This document shows, one piece after another, positions 4,585 through 40,236 of a stretch of 64,000 bases of DNA. This stretch comes from Alphaproteobacteria bacterium (GTDB lineage Bacteria; Pseudomonadota; Alphaproteobacteria; UBA6615), in assembly GCA_050246875.1 (NCBI GenBank), contig JBFWVF010000001.1:146566-210565 (forward strand), read 5' to 3'. The notes under the pieces are model-generated. The model saw only the letters and a program-made list of their open reading frames with translations. It ran no database searches and had not been told where the DNA came from. Both the position numbers and the translations under genes were made by a program. How positions within the stretch are numbered: the first letter of the stretch is position 1; each line of letters opens with the position of its first letter.

Positions 4585-5546
4585 CGTCCGTCTCCGCGGC
4601 CCGCGAACAGTCCCATCAGCCCGCCGCGCGCGAACAGCACGACCAGCACGAGGAACGGCCCGAAGACGACATGCCAGTGCTCGGTGAGCGAGGACAGCAG
4701 CTCCGACAGGATCAGGTAGGCCGCGGCACCGATCACCGGGCCGAACAGCGAGCCCATGCCGCCGAGCAGCACCATGAAGATTAGCTCGCCCGAGCGCGGC
4801 CAGTCCATCATGTCGGGGCTGACATAGCGCTCGACATTGGCCGTCAGCACGCCGGCGAGGCCGCAGATCATGCCGGACAGCACAAAGGCGGCGAGGCGGT
4901 AGCGGTAGGTGGGGATGCCGAGGGATTGCAGGCGCGTGTCGTTCGACTGCGAGGCGCGCAGCACCATGCCGAAGCGCGAGCGCACGATGCGCCCGCAGCC
5001 CCACAGCACCAGCAGCAGCAGCGCGAAGACGATGTAGTAGACCGTGATCGGATCGGTAACGGTGAGGTCGAGGCCGCCGATCGAGAAATCGCTGCGCCGG
5101 CGGATGTTGAGGCCGTCGTTGCTGCCGTAGTGCGAGGCCGACACGCCGAGGAAGTAGACCATCTGGGCGAAGGCCAGCGTGATCATGATGAAGTAGACCC
5201 CGCGCGTCCGCAGCGACACGGCGCCGAAGGCCAGCGCCGCGAGGCCCGACAGCGCGAGGGCCAGCGGCCACTGCACCCAGGCGCTGGTCTCGCCGTGGAA
5301 GGCGAGGATGGCGACGGTGTAGCCGCCGATGCCGACATAGGCGGCGTGGCCGAAGCTGACCATGCCGCCGAAGCCGAGGATGAGGTTGAGGCCCAGCGCG
5401 GCGATGGCCCACAGCATGACGCGGGCGAAGACCTGGATGTAGAACGGCTCGCCCAGCGCCGGCGCCAGCACCGGCATCCCCGCGCACAGCGCGAGGAAGG
5501 CGGCGGCCACGAGCGTCCGGCCGCGGAGGAGCGTCTGCCGGTCCAT
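4581..5546 (-). CDS. Branched-chain amino acid-type ABC permease, LivM-like
   Basis: 321 aa, multi-TM, typical LivM family; ATGA overlap with the livG-like start. Confidence 0.85.
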   Translation of the reverse strand: MDRQTLLRGRTLVAAAFLALCAGMPVLAPALGEPFYIQVFARVMLWAIAALGLNLILGFGGMVSFGHAAYVGIGGYTVAILAFHGETSAWVQWPLALALSGLAALAFGAVSLRTRGVYFIMITLAFAQMVYFLGVSASHYGSNDGLNIRRRSDFSIGGLDLTVTDPITVYYIVFALLLLVLWGCGRIVRSRFGMVLRASQSNDTRLQSLGIPTYRYRLAAFVLSGMICGLAGVLTANVERYVSPDMMDWPRSGELIFMVLLGGMGSLFGPVIGAAAYLILSELLSSLTEHWHVVFGPFLVLVVLFARGGLMGLFAGRGDGR

Positions 5547-5550
5547 GGTC

Positions 5551-6474
5551 TCAACCCCCGCGCGGCGAGAACAGGCCCTGCGGGCGGAAGAACAGCACGA
5601 CCGCCATCAGCACGTAGACCGCCATCGACGACAGCGCCGGCGCCGCGGTCGACGACGCCACCGGATTGAGGAAGAGATCGAGCAGGCTGCCGAGGAAGGC
5701 GCGGCCCATGGTATCGATGACGCCGGTCAGCAGCGCCGCGACGAAAGCGCCGCGGATCGAGCCGATGCCGCCGATGACGATGACGACGAAGGCGAGGATC
5801 AGCACGTGCTCGCCCATGCCGACCTGGGCAAGGCTGATCGGCGCCACCATCATGCCGGCGAGCCCGGCCAGCATGGCGCCGAGCCCGAATACCAGCGTGA
5901 ACAGCAGCTTGATGTCGACGCCGAGCGCGCCGGCCATGGTGCGGTTGGAGGCGCCGGCACGGATCAGCATGCCGAGCCGGGTCCGCGCGACCAGCCAGTA
6001 GAGGCCGATCGCGACGGCGAGGCCGACAGCGATGATGGCCAGCCGGTAGACGGGATACTGGATGCCGAGCGGCAGCGTCACCGCCGTCGACAGGAACTGC
6101 GGCAGCGGCACGGCGAGGCCGGCCGGCCCCCAGACCAGCCGCACCGCCTCGTTGAAGAACAGGATCAGGCCGAAGGTCGCCAGCACCTGGTCGAGATGGC
6201 CTCGCGCATAGAGGGTGCGCAACGCCACCACCTCGACGACGAGACCGACGACGAGGGTGGCCGGCAAAGCCAGCAGGACGCCGAGCACGAAGGAGTCGGT
6301 CCAGCCGGTGAACGTCGCGGCGAGGAAGGCCCCGACCATGTAGATCGAGCCATGGGCCAGGTTGACGAGGTCCATGATGCCGAAGACGAGCGTCAGCCCC
6401 GCCGCCAGCAGGAACAGCAGGACGCCGAGCTGCAGCCCGTTGAGGAGCTGCTCGACGACGAGGGCGACGCTCAT
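5551..6474 (-). CDS. Branched-chain amino acid-type ABC permease, LivH-like
   Basis: Start placed at MSVALVVEQLLNGLQLG (internal M of track ORF 5551..6489); hydrophobic LivH-like sequence. Confidence 0.8.
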   Translation of the reverse strand: MSVALVVEQLLNGLQLGVLLFLLAAGLTLVFGIMDLVNLAHGSIYMVGAFLAATFTGWTDSFVLGVLLALPATLVVGLVVEVVALRTLYARGHLDQVLATFGLILFFNEAVRLVWGPAGLAVPLPQFLSTAVTLPLGIQYPVYRLAIIAVGLAVAIGLYWLVARTRLGMLIRAGASNRTMAGALGVDIKLLFTLVFGLGAMLAGLAGMMVAPISLAQVGMGEHVLILAFVVIVIGGIGSIRGAFVAALLTGVIDTMGRAFLGSLLDLFLNPVASSTAAPALSSMAVYVLMAVVLFFRPQGLFSPRGG

Positions 6475-6553
6475 GTCCGGTCCGCGCAACTGCCGGGGCG
6501 GCGGCTGCGGCGGCCAACCCCGGCCGCCGCACGCCGCCGCGCCCGGACGATGC

Positions 6554-7729
6554 CTACATCTTGCACTCGGCGGCCGACGGATCGACGTGATCCTTCAGCA
6601 CCACGCCGACGGTCTTGGTCGTCCAGTTGCCCTCGGCATCGGCGACCACCTCGCGGGCATAGAAGTCCTGGATCGGGAAGTGGTTCTTGCCGAACTTGAA
6701 CTTGCCGCGCACAGACGGCCACTTGGCCTCGAGCAGCGACTTGCGCCACGTCGTCGCGTCCTTCGGCAGGCCGCCCGCGGCCTCGACCGCGCCCTTGATG
6801 AGGAAGATCGAGTCGTAGGCCTGCGCCGCGTAGAACGACGGGTAGGTCTTGTGCTTGGCCTTGAAGTCGGCGACGAAGCGCTTGTTCTGCGCGTTGTCGA
6901 GGTCCGGCACCCAGAACTGCGTCATCACCGTGCCGAGCACGTGGTCCATCTTCGCCTGCTGCAGGCGCGGCAGGGCGATCGCGTCGATGGTGTAGACCGT
7001 GTACAGCGGGATGTCGTGCATGCCCGCCTGCTCGTACTGCTTCAGGAACGCGGGGCCGTGCGCGCCCGGGTAGAAGGCGAACACGCCGTCTGGCTTCGCC
7101 GCCTTGGCCTTGGTGAACTCGGCCGCCCAGTCCATCTGCGCCGGCCACGTCGTGTAGTCCTCGCCGGCGACGGTGCCCTTGAAGGTGCGCTTGACGCCGG
7201 CGACCATGTCCTTGCCTGCGGCGTAGTTGGGCGCGATGGTGTAGAGCGACTTCACGCCCTTCTGGTTGAGCAGTTCACCCATCGCCATCGGCGTCTGGTC
7301 GTTCTGCCACGACACGTTGAAGAAATTGGGGTGGCAGTCCTTGCCGGCGAGCTGCGACGGGCCGGCGTTGGCGCTGATGAGGATCTTGTCGGCATCAAGC
7401 ACGACCGGCGCCGAGGCCAGCAGCACGTTCGACCACAGATAGCCGGCGATGAGATCGACCTTGTCGCTGGTCACCAGCTTCTCGGTCGCCTGCTTGCCCT
7501 TCTGCGGATTGAACTCGTCGTCGGCATAGACGATCTCGACCTCGAGCCCGCCCATCTTGCGACCGATATGCTCGACCGCCAGCTCGACGGCCTTGCGCTG
7601 ATCCTCGCCGATGATCGCGGCTGGCGTCGTCAGCGTGGTGAGAAACCCGATCCTGATCTTGTCCGCAGCGAGCGCCGGGCTCGCCAGCAGCGCGGCGGCG
7701 GCCGCCGCCGCCATCATCCGTCCGTACAT
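6554..7729 (-). CDS. ABC transporter periplasmic substrate-binding protein (Leu/Ile/Val-binding family; likely benzoate or aromatic acid uptake)
   Basis: Start at MYGRMMAAAAAAALLASPALA (signal peptide) inside track ORF 6554..7870; type I periplasmic binding fold; first gene of the SBP-H-M-G-F operon convergent with the box genes. Confidence 0.8.
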   Translation of the reverse strand: MYGRMMAAAAAAALLASPALAADKIRIGFLTTLTTPAAIIGEDQRKAVELAVEHIGRKMGGLEVEIVYADDEFNPQKGKQATEKLVTSDKVDLIAGYLWSNVLLASAPVVLDADKILISANAGPSQLAGKDCHPNFFNVSWQNDQTPMAMGELLNQKGVKSLYTIAPNYAAGKDMVAGVKRTFKGTVAGEDYTTWPAQMDWAAEFTKAKAAKPDGVFAFYPGAHGPAFLKQYEQAGMHDIPLYTVYTIDAIALPRLQQAKMDHVLGTVMTQFWVPDLDNAQNKRFVADFKAKHKTYPSFYAAQAYDSIFLIKGAVEAAGGLPKDATTWRKSLLEAKWPSVRGKFKFGKNHFPIQDFYAREVVADAEGNWTTKTVGVVLKDHVDPSAAECKM

Positions 7730-18426: not shown

Positions 18427-18625
18427 GCGTCTCTCCCTGAAACATCACGCCCATTGCGGGCGCGCTGGGGCCCGACGAGCTTACCGAAAAGCATGATCCG
18501 GTGGCTATCGCAGCCGAAACCAAACGGGGCCCCACTGTCATACCCCAACGCCGGTGAATGCAAATGTTTGAGGGTCAAGTGCAGGACATGGTAAAAGATT
18601 TAGATTCGGCTAGGAACACGGTAAA

Positions 18626-19837
18626 ATGGCAAATGACCTTATACTCGCGCCGTCGGTGGAGCTTATTCGGGCGTCCAATGTTCATGCCCTACTGGCCCGC
18701 GTCCGGCCCCAATGGCAGGCAAAAGCACTAATTGATCGCGTCCGACGATTACTCGATGTGGACCCGAGCAGTGCTTGTCAAAGACTCTTGAACGCCGCCA
18801 TCCATGACTTACGAGAAAAAATCATAATTGCAGGAATTGATATCGCAACTGAGGCAGCAAAACAATCCAAACTTCCTCCTATTACTAATTCTGAAGATAT
18901 AGAAAATTACTCGACGTTGAAGTTAATCGATCTAGCATATAGAATGGGCCTGCTTTCCCGTTCCGAATGGCGTCGGGTTTCACGTTGTTATGAGATACGC
19001 CGTGATCTCGAACATGAGGACGACGAATACGAAGCAGGCGTGGAAGATTGCGTGTATATATTCACGACATGTATAGAGGTAATTCTTTCAAAAGATCCAG
19101 TTCAACTGATCAAGGTTACCGATTTTAAAGGGCTGATTGAGCAGCCTTCCGCAGTCGTTCCTGATCGAGTTTTTCTTGAAGATTTTCGAAACGCGCCCCA
19201 GCCTCGCCAAGAAGAAATTCTAAAGTTCCTAGTTTCCCATGCACTAAACAAAGGTGTTGCTGATGTCGTTCAACAAAATGCCTATACTTGTATTACCTAC
19301 CTTCGACCAGTTACCCAAGCCGCAGTTTCCGCTAGAATAGGGGATCACCTTCAGAGTATAGCTGGTAGGAAAATTGATGCGCGTATGGCACGGGTAGCCC
19401 ATGCGGCCGGAGTGTTTCCCTATCTGCGGCAGTCAGCGCGGCTTGCGTTTTTCGAAGAATTCTTCGGCAACATGGAAAAAGTTGGCACACATTGGACCGC
19501 CCACGGTGATCATGGTGATCTTCTTCGTTCATTCATTGATTTTGGAGGCCTCGAGAACTGTCCGCGCGAAATTCGGGAGTCTATTTTGAAATGGCTTGTT
19601 CTTACTTATGTGGGCACCCCAGGAGGGCCCACAAGATACGGTAATGTGCGCCATGTTTTCTATAGCAATTCTGCGGCCCCGGTGATCAAAGAGATTATTT
19701 CCAAATCAGCTCGCAGTATCCGAGCTGATTTGGAAGCTCTGCGCGCTGACAAACATGTGAAAGAGGCCCTTTGTAACGACTATATTTCTCGCCGGTTCGA
19801 AACACTAATCGATCTCGTTGAGACTGAGGGAGCATAA
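18626..19837 (+). CDS. Hypothetical protein, low-GC, with HEPN-like Rx4H motif (R125-RDLE-H130); no recognisable family
   Basis: 403 aa; AT-rich codon usage (AAA, ATT, TTA, GAT) contrasting with the GC3-rich host; SRSEWRRVSRCYEIRRDLEHEDDEY in a helical N-terminal region; C-terminal about 250 aa unassignable. Confidence 0.5.
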   Translation: MANDLILAPSVELIRASNVHALLARVRPQWQAKALIDRVRRLLDVDPSSACQRLLNAAIHDLREKIIIAGIDIATEAAKQSKLPPITNSEDIENYSTLKLIDLAYRMGLLSRSEWRRVSRCYEIRRDLEHEDDEYEAGVEDCVYIFTTCIEVILSKDPVQLIKVTDFKGLIEQPSAVVPDRVFLEDFRNAPQPRQEEILKFLVSHALNKGVADVVQQNAYTCITYLRPVTQAAVSARIGDHLQSIAGRKIDARMARVAHAAGVFPYLRQSARLAFFEEFFGNMEKVGTHWTAHGDHGDLLRSFIDFGGLENCPREIRESILKWLVLTYVGTPGGPTRYGNVRHVFYSNSAAPVIKEIISKSARSIRADLEALRADKHVKEALCNDYISRRFETLIDLVETEGA

Positions 19838-19873
19838 GGAGAAGATCAAATTGCAGATACCAAATTCTGGCAT

Positions 19874-19959
19874 TGGTGGCCCCTCCGGGACTCGAACCCG
19901 GACCGCCGAAAGCGTGCGGATTTTAAGTCCGCTGCGTCTACCAGTTCCGCCAAGGGGCC
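19874..19959 (-). tRNA. tRNA-Leu (anticodon UAA), type II with long variable arm, encoded CCA
   Basis: Reverse complement GGCCCCTTGGCGGAACTGGTAGACGCAGCGGACTTAAAATCCGCACGCTTTCGGCGGTCCGGGTTCGAGTCCCGGAGGGGCCACCA folds as a cloverleaf: acceptor GGCCCCT/AGGGGCC, anticodon loop CTTAAAA, T-arm CCGGG-TTCGAGT-CCCGG. Confidence 0.85.
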
Positions 19960-20013
19960 GCTCCAATAAAGTACTCTAAATACGCCACCTCATGTTTACC
20001 TACGCAATGTCAG
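19960..20013 (-). promoter_or_regulatory. Putative sigma70-type promoter for tRNA-Leu (TTGCGT, about 18-19 nt spacer, TATTTA), leader processed by RNase P
   Basis: Upstream sequence on the minus strand: ACTGACATTGCGTAGGTAAACATGAGGTGGCGTATTTAGAGTACTTTATTGGAGC. Confidence 0.2.
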
Positions 20014-20664
20014 TTAGTCGCTAAGAGTACCTTCAACGCGTCGCAGGAGCATCCGTCCAAGAGATATGCATTGCTCGGAAACATGCTTGTCCAATCGAGG
20101 AGCAAGCCTGTCGGTTAGGTCGCCGCCACCTACATCACGGTAAAACGCAGCGTTTTTCAATTGACTGAGACGAGCAGCTGTAGCCTCGCTTAGAATTCCA
20201 TCGATACCCTCGGATTTCGCTTTCTGCGCCATCAACACATGAAGCTCGTCCAACCATCGACCCGAAAAAAAGTCGCGATTGAAATCTTGGCCACGCGGGG
20301 ACGCAAGCCATTCTTTTTGAGAATTTGTCATCTTCGATTTATGAATTAATTCAAATCCATATGCCTCAGTCCACTCTATGATCGAACGCACATACAATTC
20401 CGACAGCGCAACAGATCCAGCTACCCTTTGTTTATGCGTGTGGACAGTAATTTTACGGATGCTATCGTCTTCTCTGCCATTGGCCCATCGCAAAATGAAA
20501 ACTTTCCCGCACTCTTCAATCGCTAACACAGCCAAACCGATAGCTGATTGAAAACGTCCAAGTTCGTTGAGTGCCTCAGAATCTGCCAATAACCTTTGCG
20601 CATTTTTCAATATTTCACGCGATTCTGCTCCATCTAGTCGAGTATGGCCTTCAATCCTCGCCAA
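20014..20664 (-). CDS. AbiV-like HEPN-domain protein (candidate abortive-infection / RNase-type defence protein)
   Basis: About 216 aa, low GC; LAVLAIEECGKVFILR helix and Rx4H motif R-KITV-H (SIRKITVHTHK); the first 17 codons of track ORF 20014..20715 are GC-rich and overlap the cinA 3' end, so start placed at TTG 20664 (uncertain). Confidence 0.5.
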   Translation of the reverse strand: MARIEGHTRLDGAESREILKNAQRLLADSEALNELGRFQSAIGLAVLAIEECGKVFILRWANGREDDSIRKITVHTHKQRVAGSVALSELYVRSIIEWTEAYGFELIHKSKMTNSQKEWLASPRGQDFNRDFFSGRWLDELHVLMAQKAKSEGIDGILSEATAARLSQLKNAAFYRDVGGGDLTDRLAPRLDKHVSEQCISLGRMLLRRVEGTLSD

Positions 20665-20677
20665 TTCTGTCCCCCGC

Positions 20678-21439
20678 TCAGTCCACCACCTCGGTCGGCA
20701 CCCCGCCGAGGTCAACGATCAGCGCCTTGATGCGCGCGGTGGCTTCGTCGAGGCGCAGCGGGTCGGGGCCGCGCGCGACGAGGTTGGTGCCGGGCTTGCC
20801 GCCGACGAAGTGCGGGTAGGAACCGATATCGACATCGGGGAAATCGTCCTGCACGGCAGTCAGGCCGTCGGCGATGACGCCCTCCGGCAGCGGGCAGCCG
20901 ACGGTGCGCGACAGGATGGTCACGCCACCCTTCAGGTACTGCTTCGCCGAGATGAACATCGCCTGCATGATGCGCGGGATGCCGGCCATGACGAAGACGT
21001 TCTCGACGCGGAAGCCGGGCGCGCCCGAGACCGGGTTCTCGACCAGTTCGGCGCGCTCGGGCGTGCGCGCCATGCGCAGCCGCGCCTCGGTCACTTCGAC
21101 GCCCATCTGCGCCATGCGCGCGCGCAGGATGCGCTCGGCCTCCGGGTGCAGGATGAGCTTCTGGCCGAACGCCTTGGCGACGCAGTCGGCGGTGATGTCG
21201 TCGTGCGTCGGGCCGATGCCGCCGGTGGTGAAGACATAGTCGTAGCGGGCGCGCAGCGCGTTCACCGCGTCGACGATCTCGACCTCGATGTCGGGCACGA
21301 CGCGCGCCTCGCGCAGTTGCACGCCGGCCTTGTTCAGCTCGACGGCGAGCCAGGCCAGGTTGGCGTCCTGCGTGCGCCCGGAGAGAATCTCGTTGCCGAT
21401 GATGAGGACGGCGGCCGTGACCTGCCCGGGCACCGCCAT
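20678..21439 (-). CDS. cinA: CinA-like competence/damage-inducible protein, molybdopterin-binding (MoCF) domain only
   Basis: 253 aa; LIIGNEILSGRTQDANLAWLA and GGIGPTHDDIT motifs. Confidence 0.8.
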   Translation of the reverse strand: MAVPGQVTAAVLIIGNEILSGRTQDANLAWLAVELNKAGVQLREARVVPDIEVEIVDAVNALRARYDYVFTTGGIGPTHDDITADCVAKAFGQKLILHPEAERILRARMAQMGVEVTEARLRMARTPERAELVENPVSGAPGFRVENVFVMAGIPRIMQAMFISAKQYLKGGVTILSRTVGCPLPEGVIADGLTAVQDDFPDVDIGSYPHFVGGKPGTNLVARGPDPLRLDEATARIKALIVDLGGVPTEVVD

Positions 21440-35524: not shown

Positions 35525-36332
35525 GCCCATCCCCGGCGACGCGCCGACTCTGACGGCGGACGGCCACGCCGTCGCGCCGTCGGGCGAGCGCGACGTGCGC
35601 TGGACGCTCGCCGAGGAGACGCCGGCCGCCCTGCTCTACAACGGCGAGTCCTTCGCCGTGATGATGGTCAGCCCCGCCGACCTCGAGGACTTCGCCGTCG
35701 GCTTCTCGCTGACCGAGGGCATCGTGCGGCGGGCCTGCGAGATCGCCTCCGTGCGCGTCGCGCCGGCGCATGACGGCTTCATCGTCAACATCGCCGTCGA
35801 CCCTGCCGATCTCGAACGCGCCGCCGCGCGCAAGCGCAGCATCCCCGGCCGCTCCGGCTGCGGCATCTGCGGCGCCCAGACCATCGGCGCCGCCGTGCCG
35901 CCGCCGCCGCGCGTGGCGGGCGCGCACCCGACGGCGGCCGCCGTGGCGCGCGCCATCGAGGCGTTCCCGGCACGCCAGCCGGTCAACGCCGCCAGCCACT
36001 CGACCCACGCCGCCGCCTTCTGCCGCCGCGACGGCACGATCGAGCGCGTGCGCGAGGACATCGGCCGCCACAACGCCCTCGACAAGCTGGTCGGCGCGCT
36101 GGCCCGCGATGGCCGGGACGCACGCGACGGCTTCGTCCTGCTGTCGAGCCGGCTGTCGGTGGAGCTTGTCTACAAGGCCGCCGTGGCCGGCGCGCCCTTC
36201 GTCGCCAGCCTGTCGGCGCCGACCGGCCTCGCGCTGCGCACCGCGCGCCGCGCCGGCATGGGCGTGGCGGCGCGCGGCGAGGGCGGCATCGTCATGTTCG
36301 ACACGTCGGGTCGCGAGGGAGCGGCGGCATGA
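35511..36332 (+). CDS. fdhD: Formate dehydrogenase accessory sulfurtransferase FdhD/FdsC
   Basis: 273 aa; GRSGCGICG motif and HNALDKLVG. Confidence 0.85.
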   Translation: MPRNEPIPGDAPTLTADGHAVAPSGERDVRWTLAEETPAALLYNGESFAVMMVSPADLEDFAVGFSLTEGIVRRACEIASVRVAPAHDGFIVNIAVDPADLERAAARKRSIPGRSGCGICGAQTIGAAVPPPPRVAGAHPTAAAVARAIEAFPARQPVNAASHSTHAAAFCRRDGTIERVREDIGRHNALDKLVGALARDGRDARDGFVLLSSRLSVELVYKAAVAGAPFVASLSAPTGLALRTARRAGMGVAARGEGGIVMFDTSGREGAAA

Positions 36333-36550
36333 AGACCGGGCAGATGGTCCACATGGCCAACCAGATCGCCGCCTTCTTCCAGGCCTACCCGCACGACGAG
36401 GCGGTCGAAGGTGTGCGCAAGCACATCCTCGACTTCTGGGAGCCGCGCATGCGCCGCCAGCTCCTCGACCACCTCGCCGCCGGCGGCGACGGCCTCGCGC
36501 CGCTGGTGCGCGAGGCGGCGGGCGGGCTGATGGAGAAGCCGAAAAATTAG
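36329..36550 (+). CDS. fdsD: Formate dehydrogenase delta subunit
   Basis: 73 aa MKTGQMVHMANQIAAFFQAYPHDEAVEGVRKHILDFWEPRMRRQL typical FdsD. Confidence 0.75.
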   Translation: MKTGQMVHMANQIAAFFQAYPHDEAVEGVRKHILDFWEPRMRRQLLDHLAAGGDGLAPLVREAAGGLMEKPKN

Positions 36551-36555
36551 CGGCT

Positions 36556-37359
36556 CTATCGCCGCCGCCGGTAGGTTCGCAGTTCCTCGGGCGAAATCTG
36601 ATCGGCGGGAACGAGCCGGTAGTGGCGCTCGTCGACGACCCGAACCTCATCGTCATCGATCGTCAGTTCGAACAATGCAATCAGATCGTCGGCCATGAAT
36701 TGGGTGGAGATAGCGCGGCACACGAGGCTCGGAAATTTCTCCGAGCAGCAATCGATGTCTTGTTGCGTCTGCAGGACGGACAGTTGGTCCGTTCCACCCT
36801 TCGCTTGTACCGGTATGACGTATTGGCATCCCTGCCGGTCGATTCCGACATAAATCTCGTCGATCTCGATCTGACCGGTACCGCGTACGGTCGTACGTAA
36901 ATGATTTTGCAAAGAGTAGGACGCAATACCCAGGAAAATATCGATCAATCGGTTGTAACGGACCTTTGCGAGTAGCGCCTGTTCGTCGGACAGCGCATGC
37001 GCCGTTACGATCTCGGGCGTCGCGTTCGGCACTTTGATCGCAACGAGATTCGGATTTGGGCGAATACGATTCAGGGTGACGAGGGCGAACTCGTAGGCCG
37101 CTCGTCCAGTGCCCTTGATAACCCATTCTTTTCCGGCTGGCTGTGTCGCAAGTATCGTTTCTGGCATTGGCGTCCGGTAACGAAGCGAATAGACGACATC
37201 GCCAAGGTTCTTCGGAAGACGGATTTCCAGGGTCGAGGCGGCCTCCTCGATATCGACCCGACGAAACGGCAGTCGATCGGAAGTACGACGATACCGATCA
37301 AAAAAAAATTTCTCGATCAGTCGCTTGTAGATGTTAGGGCGCTCGTCGCGCTTAGGCAT
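36556..37359 (-). CDS. Putative type II restriction endonuclease (PD-(D/E)XK-like), cognate to the adjacent m5C methyltransferase
   Basis: 267 aa from MPKRDERPNIYKRLIEK; starts 2 nt after the MTase stop; candidate catalytic segment IEIDEIYVGID...VIPVQAKGG; lower GC; no family assignable by eye. Confidence 0.5.
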   Translation of the reverse strand: MPKRDERPNIYKRLIEKFFFDRYRRTSDRLPFRRVDIEEAASTLEIRLPKNLGDVVYSLRYRTPMPETILATQPAGKEWVIKGTGRAAYEFALVTLNRIRPNPNLVAIKVPNATPEIVTAHALSDEQALLAKVRYNRLIDIFLGIASYSLQNHLRTTVRGTGQIEIDEIYVGIDRQGCQYVIPVQAKGGTDQLSVLQTQQDIDCCSEKFPSLVCRAISTQFMADDLIALFELTIDDDEVRVVDERHYRLVPADQISPEELRTYRRRR

Positions 37360-38695
37360 GGACGCCACTCGTCGAACCGTTGCGAACGGCTTCGATGTCC
37401 GCCTGCTTGCGCTTGCGTGCGCCGCTCTTCCGATCCCGTCGGCCAATGGGGGCGGGAATGCCGAAATAGGCGCACGCTTCCGACATACCTAGACGCAACA
37501 ACTCCGGATCGCCCAATTCGAGAGTCGTACTCGGCCTGGTCGGACGAACGCCGAGAGCGGATAAAACTTCTTGTGCGACGGCTCTGGCGAGCGGCGGCGG
37601 GACAGCGTTACCGACTTGCCGAGCGCCATGCCATTTCGTTGCATGAAAGCGAAACCAATCCGGAAACCCATGCAAACGGGCCATCTCGCGAACGGTCACA
37701 CACCGTGGCGCTCGATAGTGGATCGGACGTGGACTCGTAAAGGCGCCACGAGCCGAATCGGTCCCCGCTCGCAAAGTGTTCGATACTCCGTGTGCGGACA
37801 GGCGGAAAAAGCGGGAGATCGGCTCGACCTCGCCGGGCGCGGTCTCGGCAAACCGGCGTCGCGATATCTCGGAGTGACCCGTTCTCATACTGGAGGTGAG
37901 AATAGCTGGATCCCATAGCCTAGGGTATCCGTACCCCCACGATTCATTGTCGAGACAACGCATAGTTCGCGCGTAAGGACTGGCTTCGCCCCAATCGGCG
38001 ACCCGCACGAAGTCGCCGTCGATCAACTCGGGCCAGCGCTCGGGATCGGGCAAGTCGGACAGCGCATCGAGGCACGTCGGGCCGTCCGAAAGAAATGCAT
38101 CGGACGTCCGCGAGCGACGATTCGTCGAACGTGTCGTCGGGTCCGGATACTTCGGCAACGCGCAACCGAACCGCGCGCCGACAAGAAAAAGGCGCTCCCG
38201 ATCCTGCGGCACGCCATAGGACGAGGCGTTCAAGACGCGCCAGGGGGAAAGCACGCGGTATCCGATTTCCCGGAATGCCCAGATTACTTCATCGAGGAAC
38301 GCCCGGTGCCGCCCAACCGTCAAACCCTTGACATTCTCGAACACGAAGTACGTTGGCTCTAGCTCCGCAACGATGCGGACAAACTCGCGGACGAGAGAGT
38401 TTCGCGGATCGTCGAGGGCACGATGTCCAATCAGCGAGAACCCTTGGCAGGGTGCTCCTCCGAACACGACATCGACGCGGCGGTCGCCTATTCCGGCCGT
38501 GCGACGGATTTCGGTACCGGTCAATCCTACGACCGAACGGGGAATAACTGCGCAGCGGGGAAAGTTGAACTTGTGGATCGCAGCATGGATGGGGTCGTAC
38601 TCGGCAGCGGCCACGACATCGAAGCCGGCCTGCTCGAAACCGAGACTGAGGCCACCCGCCCCGGAAAACAGGTCTATTCCGATCGGTCGGCGCAT
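37352..38695 (-). CDS. DNA (cytosine-5)-methyltransferase
   Basis: 447 aa; motif I DLFSGAGG, motif IV GGAPCQGFS, motif VI ENV, motif X QVGNAVPPPLA. Confidence 0.9.
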   Translation of the reverse strand: MRRPIGIDLFSGAGGLSLGFEQAGFDVVAAAEYDPIHAAIHKFNFPRCAVIPRSVVGLTGTEIRRTAGIGDRRVDVVFGGAPCQGFSLIGHRALDDPRNSLVREFVRIVAELEPTYFVFENVKGLTVGRHRAFLDEVIWAFREIGYRVLSPWRVLNASSYGVPQDRERLFLVGARFGCALPKYPDPTTRSTNRRSRTSDAFLSDGPTCLDALSDLPDPERWPELIDGDFVRVADWGEASPYARTMRCLDNESWGYGYPRLWDPAILTSSMRTGHSEISRRRFAETAPGEVEPISRFFRLSAHGVSNTLRAGTDSARGAFTSPRPIHYRAPRCVTVREMARLHGFPDWFRFHATKWHGARQVGNAVPPPLARAVAQEVLSALGVRPTRPSTTLELGDPELLRLGMSEACAYFGIPAPIGRRDRKSGARKRKQADIEAVRNGSTSGVHA

Positions 38696-38765
38696 CGTTG
38701 GTCCTCTCGACCGTGATCGTTCTTATTTTGTTCCGAAACTCGTCCCCGGTGCAAGGATCGAAGCC

Positions 38766-39173
38766 TCAGCACTCGAGGAAAGCGACCACGCGCGATAGGG
38801 CTTCCTCTGGAGCCCGCAATTCGCACTGCCAAACGACGAATACATCCCACCCTGCCGACTGCAACTCTCTTGTCTTCCGTACGTCGCGTGCCCGATTCGC
38901 GGCGATCTTCGGTATCCAGTATTCCCTGCGACTCTTCGGCAATAGGCCCCAACGGCATCCGTGGCCATGCCAAAAGCAACCGTTGACGAACACGACCTTC
39001 CTTCGCCTAGGAAACGCGATGTCGGGGGAACCGGGCAAAGTTCGTACGTGCAGACGAAATCGATAGCCGGCTCGATGCAACAATTTGCGGAGAACCAACT
39101 CGGGGCCGGTATTGCGCGTACCGACGCTGGCCATTATCGCGCTGCGAACCGGGGAGGAAACACGATCGACCAT
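38766..39173 (-). CDS. vsr: Very short patch repair endonuclease
   Basis: Start at MVDRVSS; TRNTGPELVLRKLLHRAGYRFRLH...PDIAF...VFVNGCFWHGH...DVFVVWQCEL match the Vsr family; internal start of track ORF 38766..39374. Confidence 0.85.
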   Translation of the reverse strand: MVDRVSSPVRSAIMASVGTRNTGPELVLRKLLHRAGYRFRLHVRTLPGSPDIAFPRRRKVVFVNGCFWHGHGCRWGLLPKSRREYWIPKIAANRARDVRKTRELQSAGWDVFVVWQCELRAPEEALSRVVAFLEC

Positions 39174-39366
39174 CGATCGATTGTAACGTGGTATCGTGAC
39201 CGTCGTTAGGCCGTTACGAGCTGGCACAAAGCCCCGACCCGCCGGCGCAAGGCGGCGGGCGATTTGCGCGTGTTGCGCCTCGTCCGGGACGACGGCCAAC
39301 GCATACAAATCCCCATCGAATCCATCCGCTATACTCGCGCCTTCGATCCACGGGAGCGCGCGCGGG

Positions 39367-40227
39367 ATGGCCATCGTCTACGACAAGCTGATGGCGCTGG
39401 AGATTCCGGATGTCGTGCACACCTACACGGTGCGCGACACCATCCTCTATGCGCTGGGCCTGGGCTTCGGCGCCGACCCGCTCGACCCGCACGAGCTGCG
39501 CTTCGTCTATGAGGACGGGCTCGTCGCCTGCCCGACCCTGGCGACCGTGCTCGCCCGGCCCGTCTTCTGGATGCGCGAACTCGATACCGGCCTCGACTAC
39601 GCCGGCATCGTCCATGGCGAGCAGGCGGTGACGATCCATCGGCCGTTGCCCGTCGCCGGCACGGTGCGCGGCCGCACCGTCATTCGCGAGATCATCGACA
39701 AGGGGCCGGGCAAGGGCGCCTTCATCGTCAACTCCCGCGAGGTGACGGACGAGGCGACGGGCGCAAGGCTGGCGACCCTCGACCAGGTCTACGTCGCGCG
39801 CAACGACGGCGGCTTCGGCGGCCCTAACCCGCCCGCGCCCCGTCCGGCGCCGCCGCCGGAGCGCGCGCCCGATGCCGTGGTCGAGATCGCGACGCTGCCG
39901 CAGGCGGCGCTGATCTATCGCCTCTCCGGCGACATGAACCCGCTGCACGCCGACCCGCGCGCCGCCGCCGCGGCCGGCTTTCCGCGGCCGATCCTGCACG
40001 GTCTCGGCACCTTCGGGGTGGCGGCACGGGCGGTCATCCGCGCCCTGTGCCCCGAGCGGCCCGACCGCCTCGTCGCCGTCTCGGCCCGCTTCTCGGCGCC
40101 GGTCTTTCCCGGCGAGACGATGGCCACCGACATCTGGCGCGACGGCGAGACGGTGCGGTTCCAGTCACGCGTCGCCGCCCGCGACACCGTCGTGCTGCGT
40201 AACGGCGCCGCGCGGCTGCACGGCTGA
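39367..40227 (+). CDS. MaoC-like (R)-specific enoyl-CoA hydratase, double hotdog
   Basis: 286 aa from MAIVYDKL; N-terminal hotdog plus C-terminal MaoC dehydratase segment SGDMNPLHADP. Confidence 0.8.
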   Translation: MAIVYDKLMALEIPDVVHTYTVRDTILYALGLGFGADPLDPHELRFVYEDGLVACPTLATVLARPVFWMRELDTGLDYAGIVHGEQAVTIHRPLPVAGTVRGRTVIREIIDKGPGKGAFIVNSREVTDEATGARLATLDQVYVARNDGGFGGPNPPAPRPAPPPERAPDAVVEIATLPQAALIYRLSGDMNPLHADPRAAAAAGFPRPILHGLGTFGVAARAVIRALCPERPDRLVAVSARFSAPVFPGETMATDIWRDGETVRFQSRVAARDTVVLRNGAARLHG

Positions 40228-40236
40228 CGACCGCCG

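Follow-up and report, generated by a model that had tools for sequence, protein, structure and literature searches.

What is a block of three genes with low guanine-plus-cytosine (GC) content doing between fdsD and maoC of an alphaproteobacterium, how did it get there, and at which DNA site would its products act? The locus lies in a stretch of 64,000 nucleotides (nt) from an Alphaproteobacteria bacterium of the UBA6615 lineage (contig JBFWVF010000001.1, positions 146,566 to 210,565), which as a whole is called the window here and provides the numbering for all its coordinates. Three intact open reading frames (ORFs) occupy 36556-39173 on its minus strand in the order vsr, a C5-cytosine methyltransferase (MTase; M) and a candidate restriction endonuclease (REase; R) of 267 amino acids (aa). 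With a probability of roughly 0.88, we read them as a Type II restriction-modification (R-M) cassette of 2.7 kb with Vsr that was acquired horizontally, forms a single minus-strand operon and is inserted in the 3' end of fdsD. Its parts are the following:

38766 to 39173, minus strand: vsr, T:G mismatch endonuclease of 135 aa (PF03852, TIGR00632, PADLOC Vsr)
37352 to 38695, minus strand: C5-cytosine MTase of 447 aa (PF00145, TIGR00675, PADLOC MTase_II)
37352 to 37359, minus strand: overlap of M stop and R start, 8 nt, ATGCCTAA
36556 to 37359, minus strand: REase candidate of 267 aa, modelled as an N-terminal winged helix and a C-terminal PD-(D/E)XK domain
39174 to 39230, minus strand: presumed promoter region 5' of vsr, island DNA

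The composition of the block sets it apart from its surroundings. Its GC content is 0.595 against 0.699 elsewhere in the window, and across 36.5-39.3 kb it falls to 0.54-0.62 from about 0.70-0.72. An earlier note on this DNA had described a low-GC minus-strand block of vsr, MTase and a 267-aa ORF, and coordinates, protein families and the drop in GC all bear this out. Its proposal that a cassette of 5-methylcytosine (m5C) MTase, REase and Vsr was acquired horizontally beside fdsD is likewise upheld, both by the GC contrast and by empty sites in relatives. The native genes on the two sides are:

36329 to 36550, plus strand: fdsD, 73 aa, matching PF11390 at 4.9e-28 over residues 6-63; codons 1-67 native
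39367 to 40227, plus strand: gene for a MaoC-like acyl dehydratase (PF01575, PF22622), the native right neighbour of fdsD

In the relatives L084 and L086-L090 the island-free order is fdsD, a spacer of 60-90 nt and maoC. Their MaoC proteins are 79-97% identical to that of the window (L088 97%; L089 and L090 86%; L084 84%; L086 and L087 79%), and because relatives this close have fdsD followed by maoC without the block, the block is, judged from this comparison of sequences, a recent insertion. Since even the relative at 97% MaoC identity (L088) lacks the island, it should also be young.

The junction with fdsD deserves a closer look. With the fdsD stop codon ending at 36550 and that of the REase gene at 36556-36558, the coordinates confirm the convergent gap of 5 nt that had been noted before. 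However, the island does not simply sit flush against an unaltered fdsD stop, as was claimed. The gene is interrupted after codon 67, where the match to the empty sites ends (36529), and the ancestral ...L-R-A-stop is replaced by ...L-MEKPKN-stop. While FdsD of the relatives comprises 69 aa and ends in ...GGLRA-stop or ...NLRA-stop, that of the window comprises 73 aa and ends in ...GGL-MEKPKN-stop; its codons 68-73 and the stop (36530-36550, ATGGAGAAGCCGAAAAATTAG, MEKPKN-stop) are low-GC island DNA. Since the Pfam FdsD domain (residues 6-63) ends before the replaced residues, the new tail is probably tolerated.

Within the cassette, the M/R junction reads cATGccTAA. Here the REase start (ATG, 37359-37357) precedes the MTase stop codon (37354-37352) by 2 nt; it does not follow it, as had been stated, and the two genes share 8 nt. 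Adjacent, separate M and R genes on the same strand are what the orthodox two-gene definition of a Type II system describes, and this is what the window holds. The MTase matches PF00145 (6.9e-63, covering 7-377), TIGR00675 (185 bits, 2.4e-54; cutoff 100.65) and the PADLOC MTase_II model PDLC03326 (1e-172), and its best PDB match is 3g7u (1.3e-63). The canonical C5 motifs attributed to it before are all readable in the translation: DLFSGAGG (I), GGAPCQGFS (IV), FENVKGL (VI), QDRERLF (VIII) and GNAVPPPLA (X).

Vsr is equally well supported by PF03852 (3.9e-26, 91.1 bits; cutoff 27), TIGR00632 (143.1 bits, 4.4e-42; cutoff 97.85) and PADLOC Vsr (2e-27). Alignment with Escherichia coli Vsr (1cw0, 1.7e-27) pairs PGSPD with PGRPD, GCFWHGHGC with GCFWHHHHC and WQC with WEC. 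It retains the catalytic Asp (D51 in E. coli) and the Cys and His residues of the zinc site, whose roles we take to be those in the E. coli Vsr structure. The length of 135 aa is counted from an internal ATG. An alternative in-frame ATG lies upstream at 39374, and its use is unlikely because a start there would overlap maoC.

The pairing recalls Dcm-Vsr of E. coli, where an m5C MTase is likewise coupled to the Vsr T:G endonuclease that repairs deamination at the methylated site. However, E. coli Dcm is an orphan MTase without REase, with overlapping genes in the order dcm then vsr, whereas in the window vsr comes first and an REase is present. The window MTase also fails NF007772, the model of the E. 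coli Dcm subfamily, with partial coverage and a score of 45.8 against a cutoff of 710. A closer physical union of the two activities is found at 5303-6916 of locus L103, where a single 537-aa protein fuses Vsr and C5-methyltransferase domains, beside a DUF4928 protein and a distant REase homologue.

To place the M-R pair in context, we surveyed 80 loci from GTDB species representatives of phyla that include Verrucomicrobia, Acidobacteria, Cyanobacteria, Planctomycetes and Proteobacteria. At 75 of them the gene immediately 5' of the REase, in the same orientation, encodes a homologous m5C MTase. Vsr is encoded upstream of the MTase at 23 of the 80, and downstream or divergently at a few further loci (e.g., L040, L066 and L081). 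The earlier note had named an orphan MTase with a broken downstream ORF as grounds for abandoning its reading; in the main family, the pairs are intact in those 75 genomes. When the M/R overlaps of these genomes and of the plasmid loci were scored together, 28 had the 8-nt form ATGnnTAA, 16 the 4-nt form ATGA, and in ten the two genes abut within 0-1 nt. The window thus has the commonest form, which suggests that translation of R is coupled to that of M.

Cassettes of this type travel. The M-R pair with the 8-nt overlap is nearly the sole cargo both of ColE1-type plasmids of 4-5 kb in Klebsiella and Salmonella and of a small Citrobacter plasmid, and the full vsr-M-R module is carried by plasmid p12374 of Paracoccus seriniphilus. 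Klebsiella pneumoniae pB1019, listed as an R-M plasmid (PMC5864857), has a homologous pair that shares the 8-nt overlap and whose R and M are 61.5% and 56% identical to those of the window. Such plasmid versions differ from the window in that they lack vsr and encode an MTase of 416 instead of 447 aa. On the mobilizable ColRNAI-type E. coli plasmid NZ_OQ821088.1 (L092; 15.7 kb) the M-R pair, again overlapping by 8 nt, adjoins Tn4401 with blaKPC-3, and there the cassette consequently travels with a carbapenemase plasmid.

The partner of the REase is not constant. Its closest homologue among the 80 loci (L028, 70% identical) is paired with an N6_N4 amino-MTase and not with an m5C enzyme, and the same holds for more distant homologues in L097 and L100. 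The REase is also found fused, to an m5C MTase in P0365 and P0404 and to an N6_N4 amino-MTase in P0364 and P0371. Distant homologues in L103-L105 retain both m5C MTase and Vsr, while other distant branches (L098 and L101, 36-47% identity) stand in phage-like surroundings where no MTase is recorded. A nuclease that is nearly always accompanied by a protecting MTase, and that draws on three unrelated types of MTase, is best understood as a restriction endonuclease. The cassette of the window is a new example of an ordinary, common and widely traded type of Type II R-M system with Vsr.

Which site would such a system recognise? Our analysis points most probably to a hexamer containing GATC. In Bifidobacterium colobi (L096; JAFEJU010000001.1, 4001-7722) a 253-aa REase homologue (PDLC03404, 4.6e-78) is encoded in convergent orientation with the m5C MTase gene of a Sau3AI-type system, in which a 494-aa neighbour aligns with R.Sau3AI (4pxg) from end to end (1.7e-46). 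This may be an arrangement of two REases and one MTase. A GATC-specific m5C enzyme could protect against the homologue only if the site of the latter contains GATC, and a GATC-containing site is favoured for this reason. For CGATCG, the site of the PvuI/XorII/RshI type, the chances in our view come close to even without quite reaching it. R.PvuI of Proteus vulgaris, at about 28 kDa, is slightly smaller than the 267-aa protein of the window.

The XorII system, which acts on CGATCG in Xanthomonas oryzae pv. oryzae, combines an m5C MTase with an adjacent vsr homolog (Choi & Leach, 1994, as cited in PMC4853030). This accessory DNA varies between strains: PXO86 has it and PXO99A does not. The likeness to the window, an m5C MTase beside a vsr homolog and an REase, is one of descriptions and not of compared sequences. 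In the RshI producer Cereibacter sphaeroides 2.4.1, the m5C MTase M.Rsp241I methylates CGATCG (PMC6256690); we place the RshI/Rsp241I locus 19975 on chromosome 2 because plasmid pA starts at locus tag 20330. According to Elhai (PMC4390886), cyanobacterial MTases for CGATCG are of either the m5C or the N4-methylcytosine (m4C) type, and in Calothrix PCC 7103 the enzyme that accompanies a predicted CGATCG REase is an m4C MTase. The REase family of the window likewise alternates between m5C and amino-MTase partners. Moreover, among 64 palindromes counted without a control set in 615 kb of flanks of the 80 carrier genomes, CGATCG occurs 247 times against 488 expected (0.51), the largest absolute deficit of all and the fourth lowest ratio.

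Several points weaken this assignment. The palindrome counts have no control set against which they could be read, and three other palindromes are equally depleted in the same flanks. The lead itself is circumstantial, and homology to any CGATCG enzyme is unproven. In addition, the depositors' labels on the Klebsiella MTase homologue name HaeIII or AplI and not XorII. Palindrome avoidance in the 61 kb of host DNA within the window is uninformative, as expected for a cassette that arrived recently.

Consequently, we consider it about an even bet that the site is another one, e.g., CTGCAG as for AplI, a Dcm-like CCWGG or some other hexamer; the cassette would still be a Type II R-M system with Vsr. 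The depletion of other palindromes to the level of CGATCG is in line with this, and so is the C-terminal fragment of the Klebsiella plasmid MTase homologue, which contains the target-recognition domain and was labelled 'Modification methylase AplI' by the depositor pipeline; AplI recognises CTGCAG (PMC5741684). However, the full-length copy of the same homologue is labelled 'M.HaeIII', and because full-length copy and fragment received different names, we take both labels to reflect generic m5C similarity. CTGCAG, at 0.72 of expectation and mid-table, is not specially depleted, and we rejected the AplI label as decisive for the site on these two grounds. The Dcm-like site that had been proposed from the presence of vsr is not supported either: the Dcm subfamily score given above is far below its cutoff, and since methylation at any m5C site gives rise to T:G mismatches, a Vsr does not point to CCWGG. 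A site with GATC in it would agree with the alternation of m5C and amino-MTases and with the neighbouring Sau3AI-type pair.

Two further candidates, GGWCC (HgiBI/AvaII) and GGNCC (Sau96I), were dropped, as the M.HaeIII and M.AplI labels lend them no support. Deposited names in two large protein searches read only 'endonuclease' and 'DNA cytosine methyltransferase' and give no specificity, and the literature on small enterobacterial R-M plasmids deals with a different system (pCS36-4CPA) or gives no specificity (pB1019; methylome papers on Klebsiella and Salmonella).

Is the cassette functional in its present place? A promoter scan returned no sigma-70 consensus promoter, with 57 nt of island DNA available upstream of vsr. 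The vsr ATG is preceded at 6 nt by a TACAAT hexamer and lacks a Shine-Dalgarno sequence, and a leaderless vsr transcript could be imagined, speculative as this is. The MTase in turn has the ribosome-binding site GAGAGGA. No conserved palindrome that could serve as an own-site operator was found upstream of the operon in 74 loci. The Verrucomicrobia copies L017, L019, L020, L022, L036, L044, L046 and L060 carry an operator-like inverted repeat, TGTTC-N4-6-GAACA, about 10-30 nt before the MTase start, which is absent from the copy in the window. At the other end of the cassette the terminator scan gave one structure:

36539 to 36566, minus strand: terminator-like hairpin GGCGGC-GATAGA-GCCGCT with 6 pairs (stem 36566-36549), followed by the tail AATTTTTCGG

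In an RNA fold the 6-bp stem does form, at an energy that is not significant against shuffled sequences (z = -0.26). The T-tract of this hairpin, reverse-complemented, encodes the new FdsD tail. Because the U-tract is present in the R-M direction alone, read-through from fds into antisense REase RNA may occur, as the earlier note had suspected.

It could be argued from these data that the cassette is a decaying remnant in which R or M has been silenced or inactivated. This would fit the missing consensus promoter and the convergent fds transcription that could run antisense through R, and the source is a metagenome-assembled genome (MAG) in which the cassette is known from its sequence. Nevertheless, we regard such a remnant as improbable. 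All three ORFs are full length compared with their models, the MTase motifs, the catalytic Asp and zinc ligands of Vsr and the invariant columns of R are intact, and the island, missing from the relative at 97% MaoC identity, is young. An intact cassette thus stays our preferred interpretation.

The vsr start codon is flanked on either side by CGATCG (39160-39182, caatCGATCGatggtCGATCGtg), and the two sites form a 7-bp hairpin that was flagged in the terminator scan. The island contains five CGATCG and six ATCGAT in 2.8 kb and is rich in CGAT/ATCG words, and the pair at the vsr start may be compositional.

The nature of the 267-aa protein itself required separate attention, as it had been described as without assignable similarity. 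Indeed, no Pfam, NCBIfam or PDB sequence match was found. However, the PADLOC REase_II model PDLC03404, which we take to derive from curated REBASE enzymes, recognises the protein from end to end (4e-128; residues 7-264 aligned to positions 2-259 of the 260 in the model), and the protein belongs to a very large family with at least 8000 members in a word-indexed search and 1197 clusters at 50% identity in an exhaustive one. Among the matches listed, homologues with 65-75% identity occur in Alpha- and Gammaproteobacteria, Cyanobacteria, Verrucomicrobia and Syntrophobacteria, while none was found in the cultured-phage collection. An identical deposited sequence carries the name 'MAG: endonuclease [Alphaproteobacteria bacterium]', and the names of homologues of about 250 aa are uninformative.

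An AlphaFold model (predicted local distance difference test, pLDDT, 76.5; predicted template modelling score, pTM, 0.66) shows two domains, predicted to be a winged helix and a PD-(D/E)XK nuclease. Foldseek returned weak matches only, all of them PD-(D/E)XK proteins, and the nearest folds were NucS/EndoMS, Cas4 and Hjc, which are repair or CRISPR nucleases and not REases. Because the matches are weak, the modelled PD-(D/E)XK fold is supported at the level of the superfamily, without a close solved relative. The protein keeps every column that is invariant among 21 diverse homologues. The invariant residues E165, D167, E168, D174, Q185 and K187 map to strands two and three of the predicted fold, and we infer from the model that they form a D...QxK variant of the catalytic motif.

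On this basis one might suspect a nuclease of another kind, be it for repair, methyl-directed or phage-derived, next to an MTase and Vsr that form an orphan epigenetic or repair pair. The lack of Pfam, NCBIfam and PDB sequence matches, the identity of the nearest folds and the distant homologues in phage-like settings without an MTase would all be compatible with this. Yet we judge it very improbable, given the REase_II match, the 75 of 80 genomes in which the homologue follows an MTase closely and is often coupled to it in translation, and the small plasmids of 4-5 kb on which M and R are the sole cargo. Three unrelated types of MTase partner together with M::R fusions are, moreover, the signature of a toxic nuclease that depends on protection. 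We therefore retain the assignment as a restriction endonuclease.

How did the cassette enter fdsD? Junction alignments were made against the empty sites of L084, L086, L088, L089 and L090, and a comparison with island-free relatives, as suggested in the earlier note, did define both ends of the insertion: codon 67 on the left, and a duplicated fdsD 3' end with a relic stop on the right. The features concerned are:

36492 to 36529, plus strand: left direct-repeat copy, the 3' end of native fdsD through codon 67 (repeat search, local alignment)
39231 to 39266, plus strand: right direct-repeat copy, a diverged fdsD 3' end (empty-site alignments), with the relic following to 39275
39267 to 39275, plus strand: relic of the original last two fdsD codons and stop, CGCGTGTTG versus CGCGCGTAG in relatives

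On the right side, homology to the relatives restarts at CGCGTGTTGCGCC...GGGACGAC..., the counterpart of CGC-GCG-TAG-CGCC... in L086. The two copies were recovered as repeat family D7 from a 17-mer, GCGCGAGGCGGCGGGCG (36508-36524) versus GCGCAAGGCGGCGGGCG (39245-39261), with 16 of 17 positions identical; 0.16 such pairs are expected per window by chance. Local alignment lengthens the repeat to 36492-36524 versus 39231-39261, with 26/33 matches (about 77%) and one 2-nt gap. The insert thus amounts to about 2.70 kb of unique DNA (36530-39230) between direct duplications of the target of about 38 nt. It holds vsr, M and R only and no integrase or recombinase gene.

An integrase-mobilised genomic island was considered and rejected although direct repeats are present: the insert has no recombinase, and no tRNA target is nearby, as the sole tRNA of the window (19874-19959) lies 17 kb away. 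R-M complexes inserted with long target duplication are reportedly known from Helicobacter and other genomes, as Nobusato et al. in 2000 and Furuta et al. in 2010 are said to have described. The window resembles such units in its small size without a recombinase, in direct repeats of tens of bp derived from the target and in a clean empty site in relatives, and differs in that its repeats are merely about 77% identical. Because the copies have diverged, either the right one could have decayed or the unit could have arrived by recombination with donor flanks. An ancestral block that the relatives later lost by deletion is scarcely credible: direct repeats can mediate deletion too, but the GC content of the island lies 10 points under that of the host, the relatives at 79-97% all lack it and share the FdsD end ...LRA-stop, the low-GC six-codon tail is confined to the window, and homologous cassettes reside on mobilizable plasmids and in many phyla.

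Taken together, a recent insertion of an R-M cassette explains the locus best, and its working may be envisioned as follows. The m5C MTase would mark a short palindrome wherever it occurs in the host genome, and the 267-aa endonuclease would cut copies that lack the mark, be they in DNA that enters with a phage or plasmid or, once the cassette is lost, in the host itself. Since M precedes R with the 8-nt overlap, R would be translated after M and through coupling to it. Vsr would nick beside the T of T:G mismatches that result from deaminated methylated cytosines and thereby offset the mutagenic cost of m5C. As the junctions show, the cassette entered the fdsD 3' end after codon 67, duplicating about 38 nt of target, and the six-residue tail of FdsD is read from the reverse complement of the terminator T-tract of the cassette.

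Two further observations concern the surroundings. In the relatives L084 (2309-3262) and L086 (2310-3261) a Vgb_lyase-family gene stands between maoC and a class II aldolase gene. In the window the aldolase gene comes straight after maoC (40228-40236), a second difference in gene content at this locus. In addition, positions 18600-20750 form a stronger low-GC island (0.49-0.59 against 0.70). It comprises a 403-aa ORF without Pfam match (18626-19837, plus strand), tRNA-Leu(taa) (19874-19959, minus strand) and a gene for a 233-aa HEPN_AbiV abortive-infection-like protein (20014-20715, minus strand; PF18728, 2e-16), and from its sequence it looks like a tRNA-associated defence islet.

For this genome, the cassette is of little importance and adds one more defence system. 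It makes the fdsD-maoC junction a recent integration site, at which the C-terminus of FdsD was slightly rewritten outside the conserved domain. Empty site, target duplication and relic stop together provide a tidy example of R-M movement without a recombinase of its own. A more far-reaching proposal would be that an abundant REase family without Pfam model or solved structure, built of a winged helix and a D...QxK PD-(D/E)XK core, stays 60-75% identical across phyla while switching among three unrelated protecting MTases (an m5C enzyme, an N4/N6 amino-MTase and an m5C enzyme of the Sau3AI type), and that the minimal vsr-M-R unit inserts itself into coding sequence by long target duplication with no recombinase; we put this forward as a tentative idea that we think will more probably turn out wrong than right. 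With at least 8000 members that NCBI names only 'endonuclease' or 'hypothetical protein', the REase family merits a curated model, and once its recognition site is known, this would help to predict barriers to plasmid and phage transfer.

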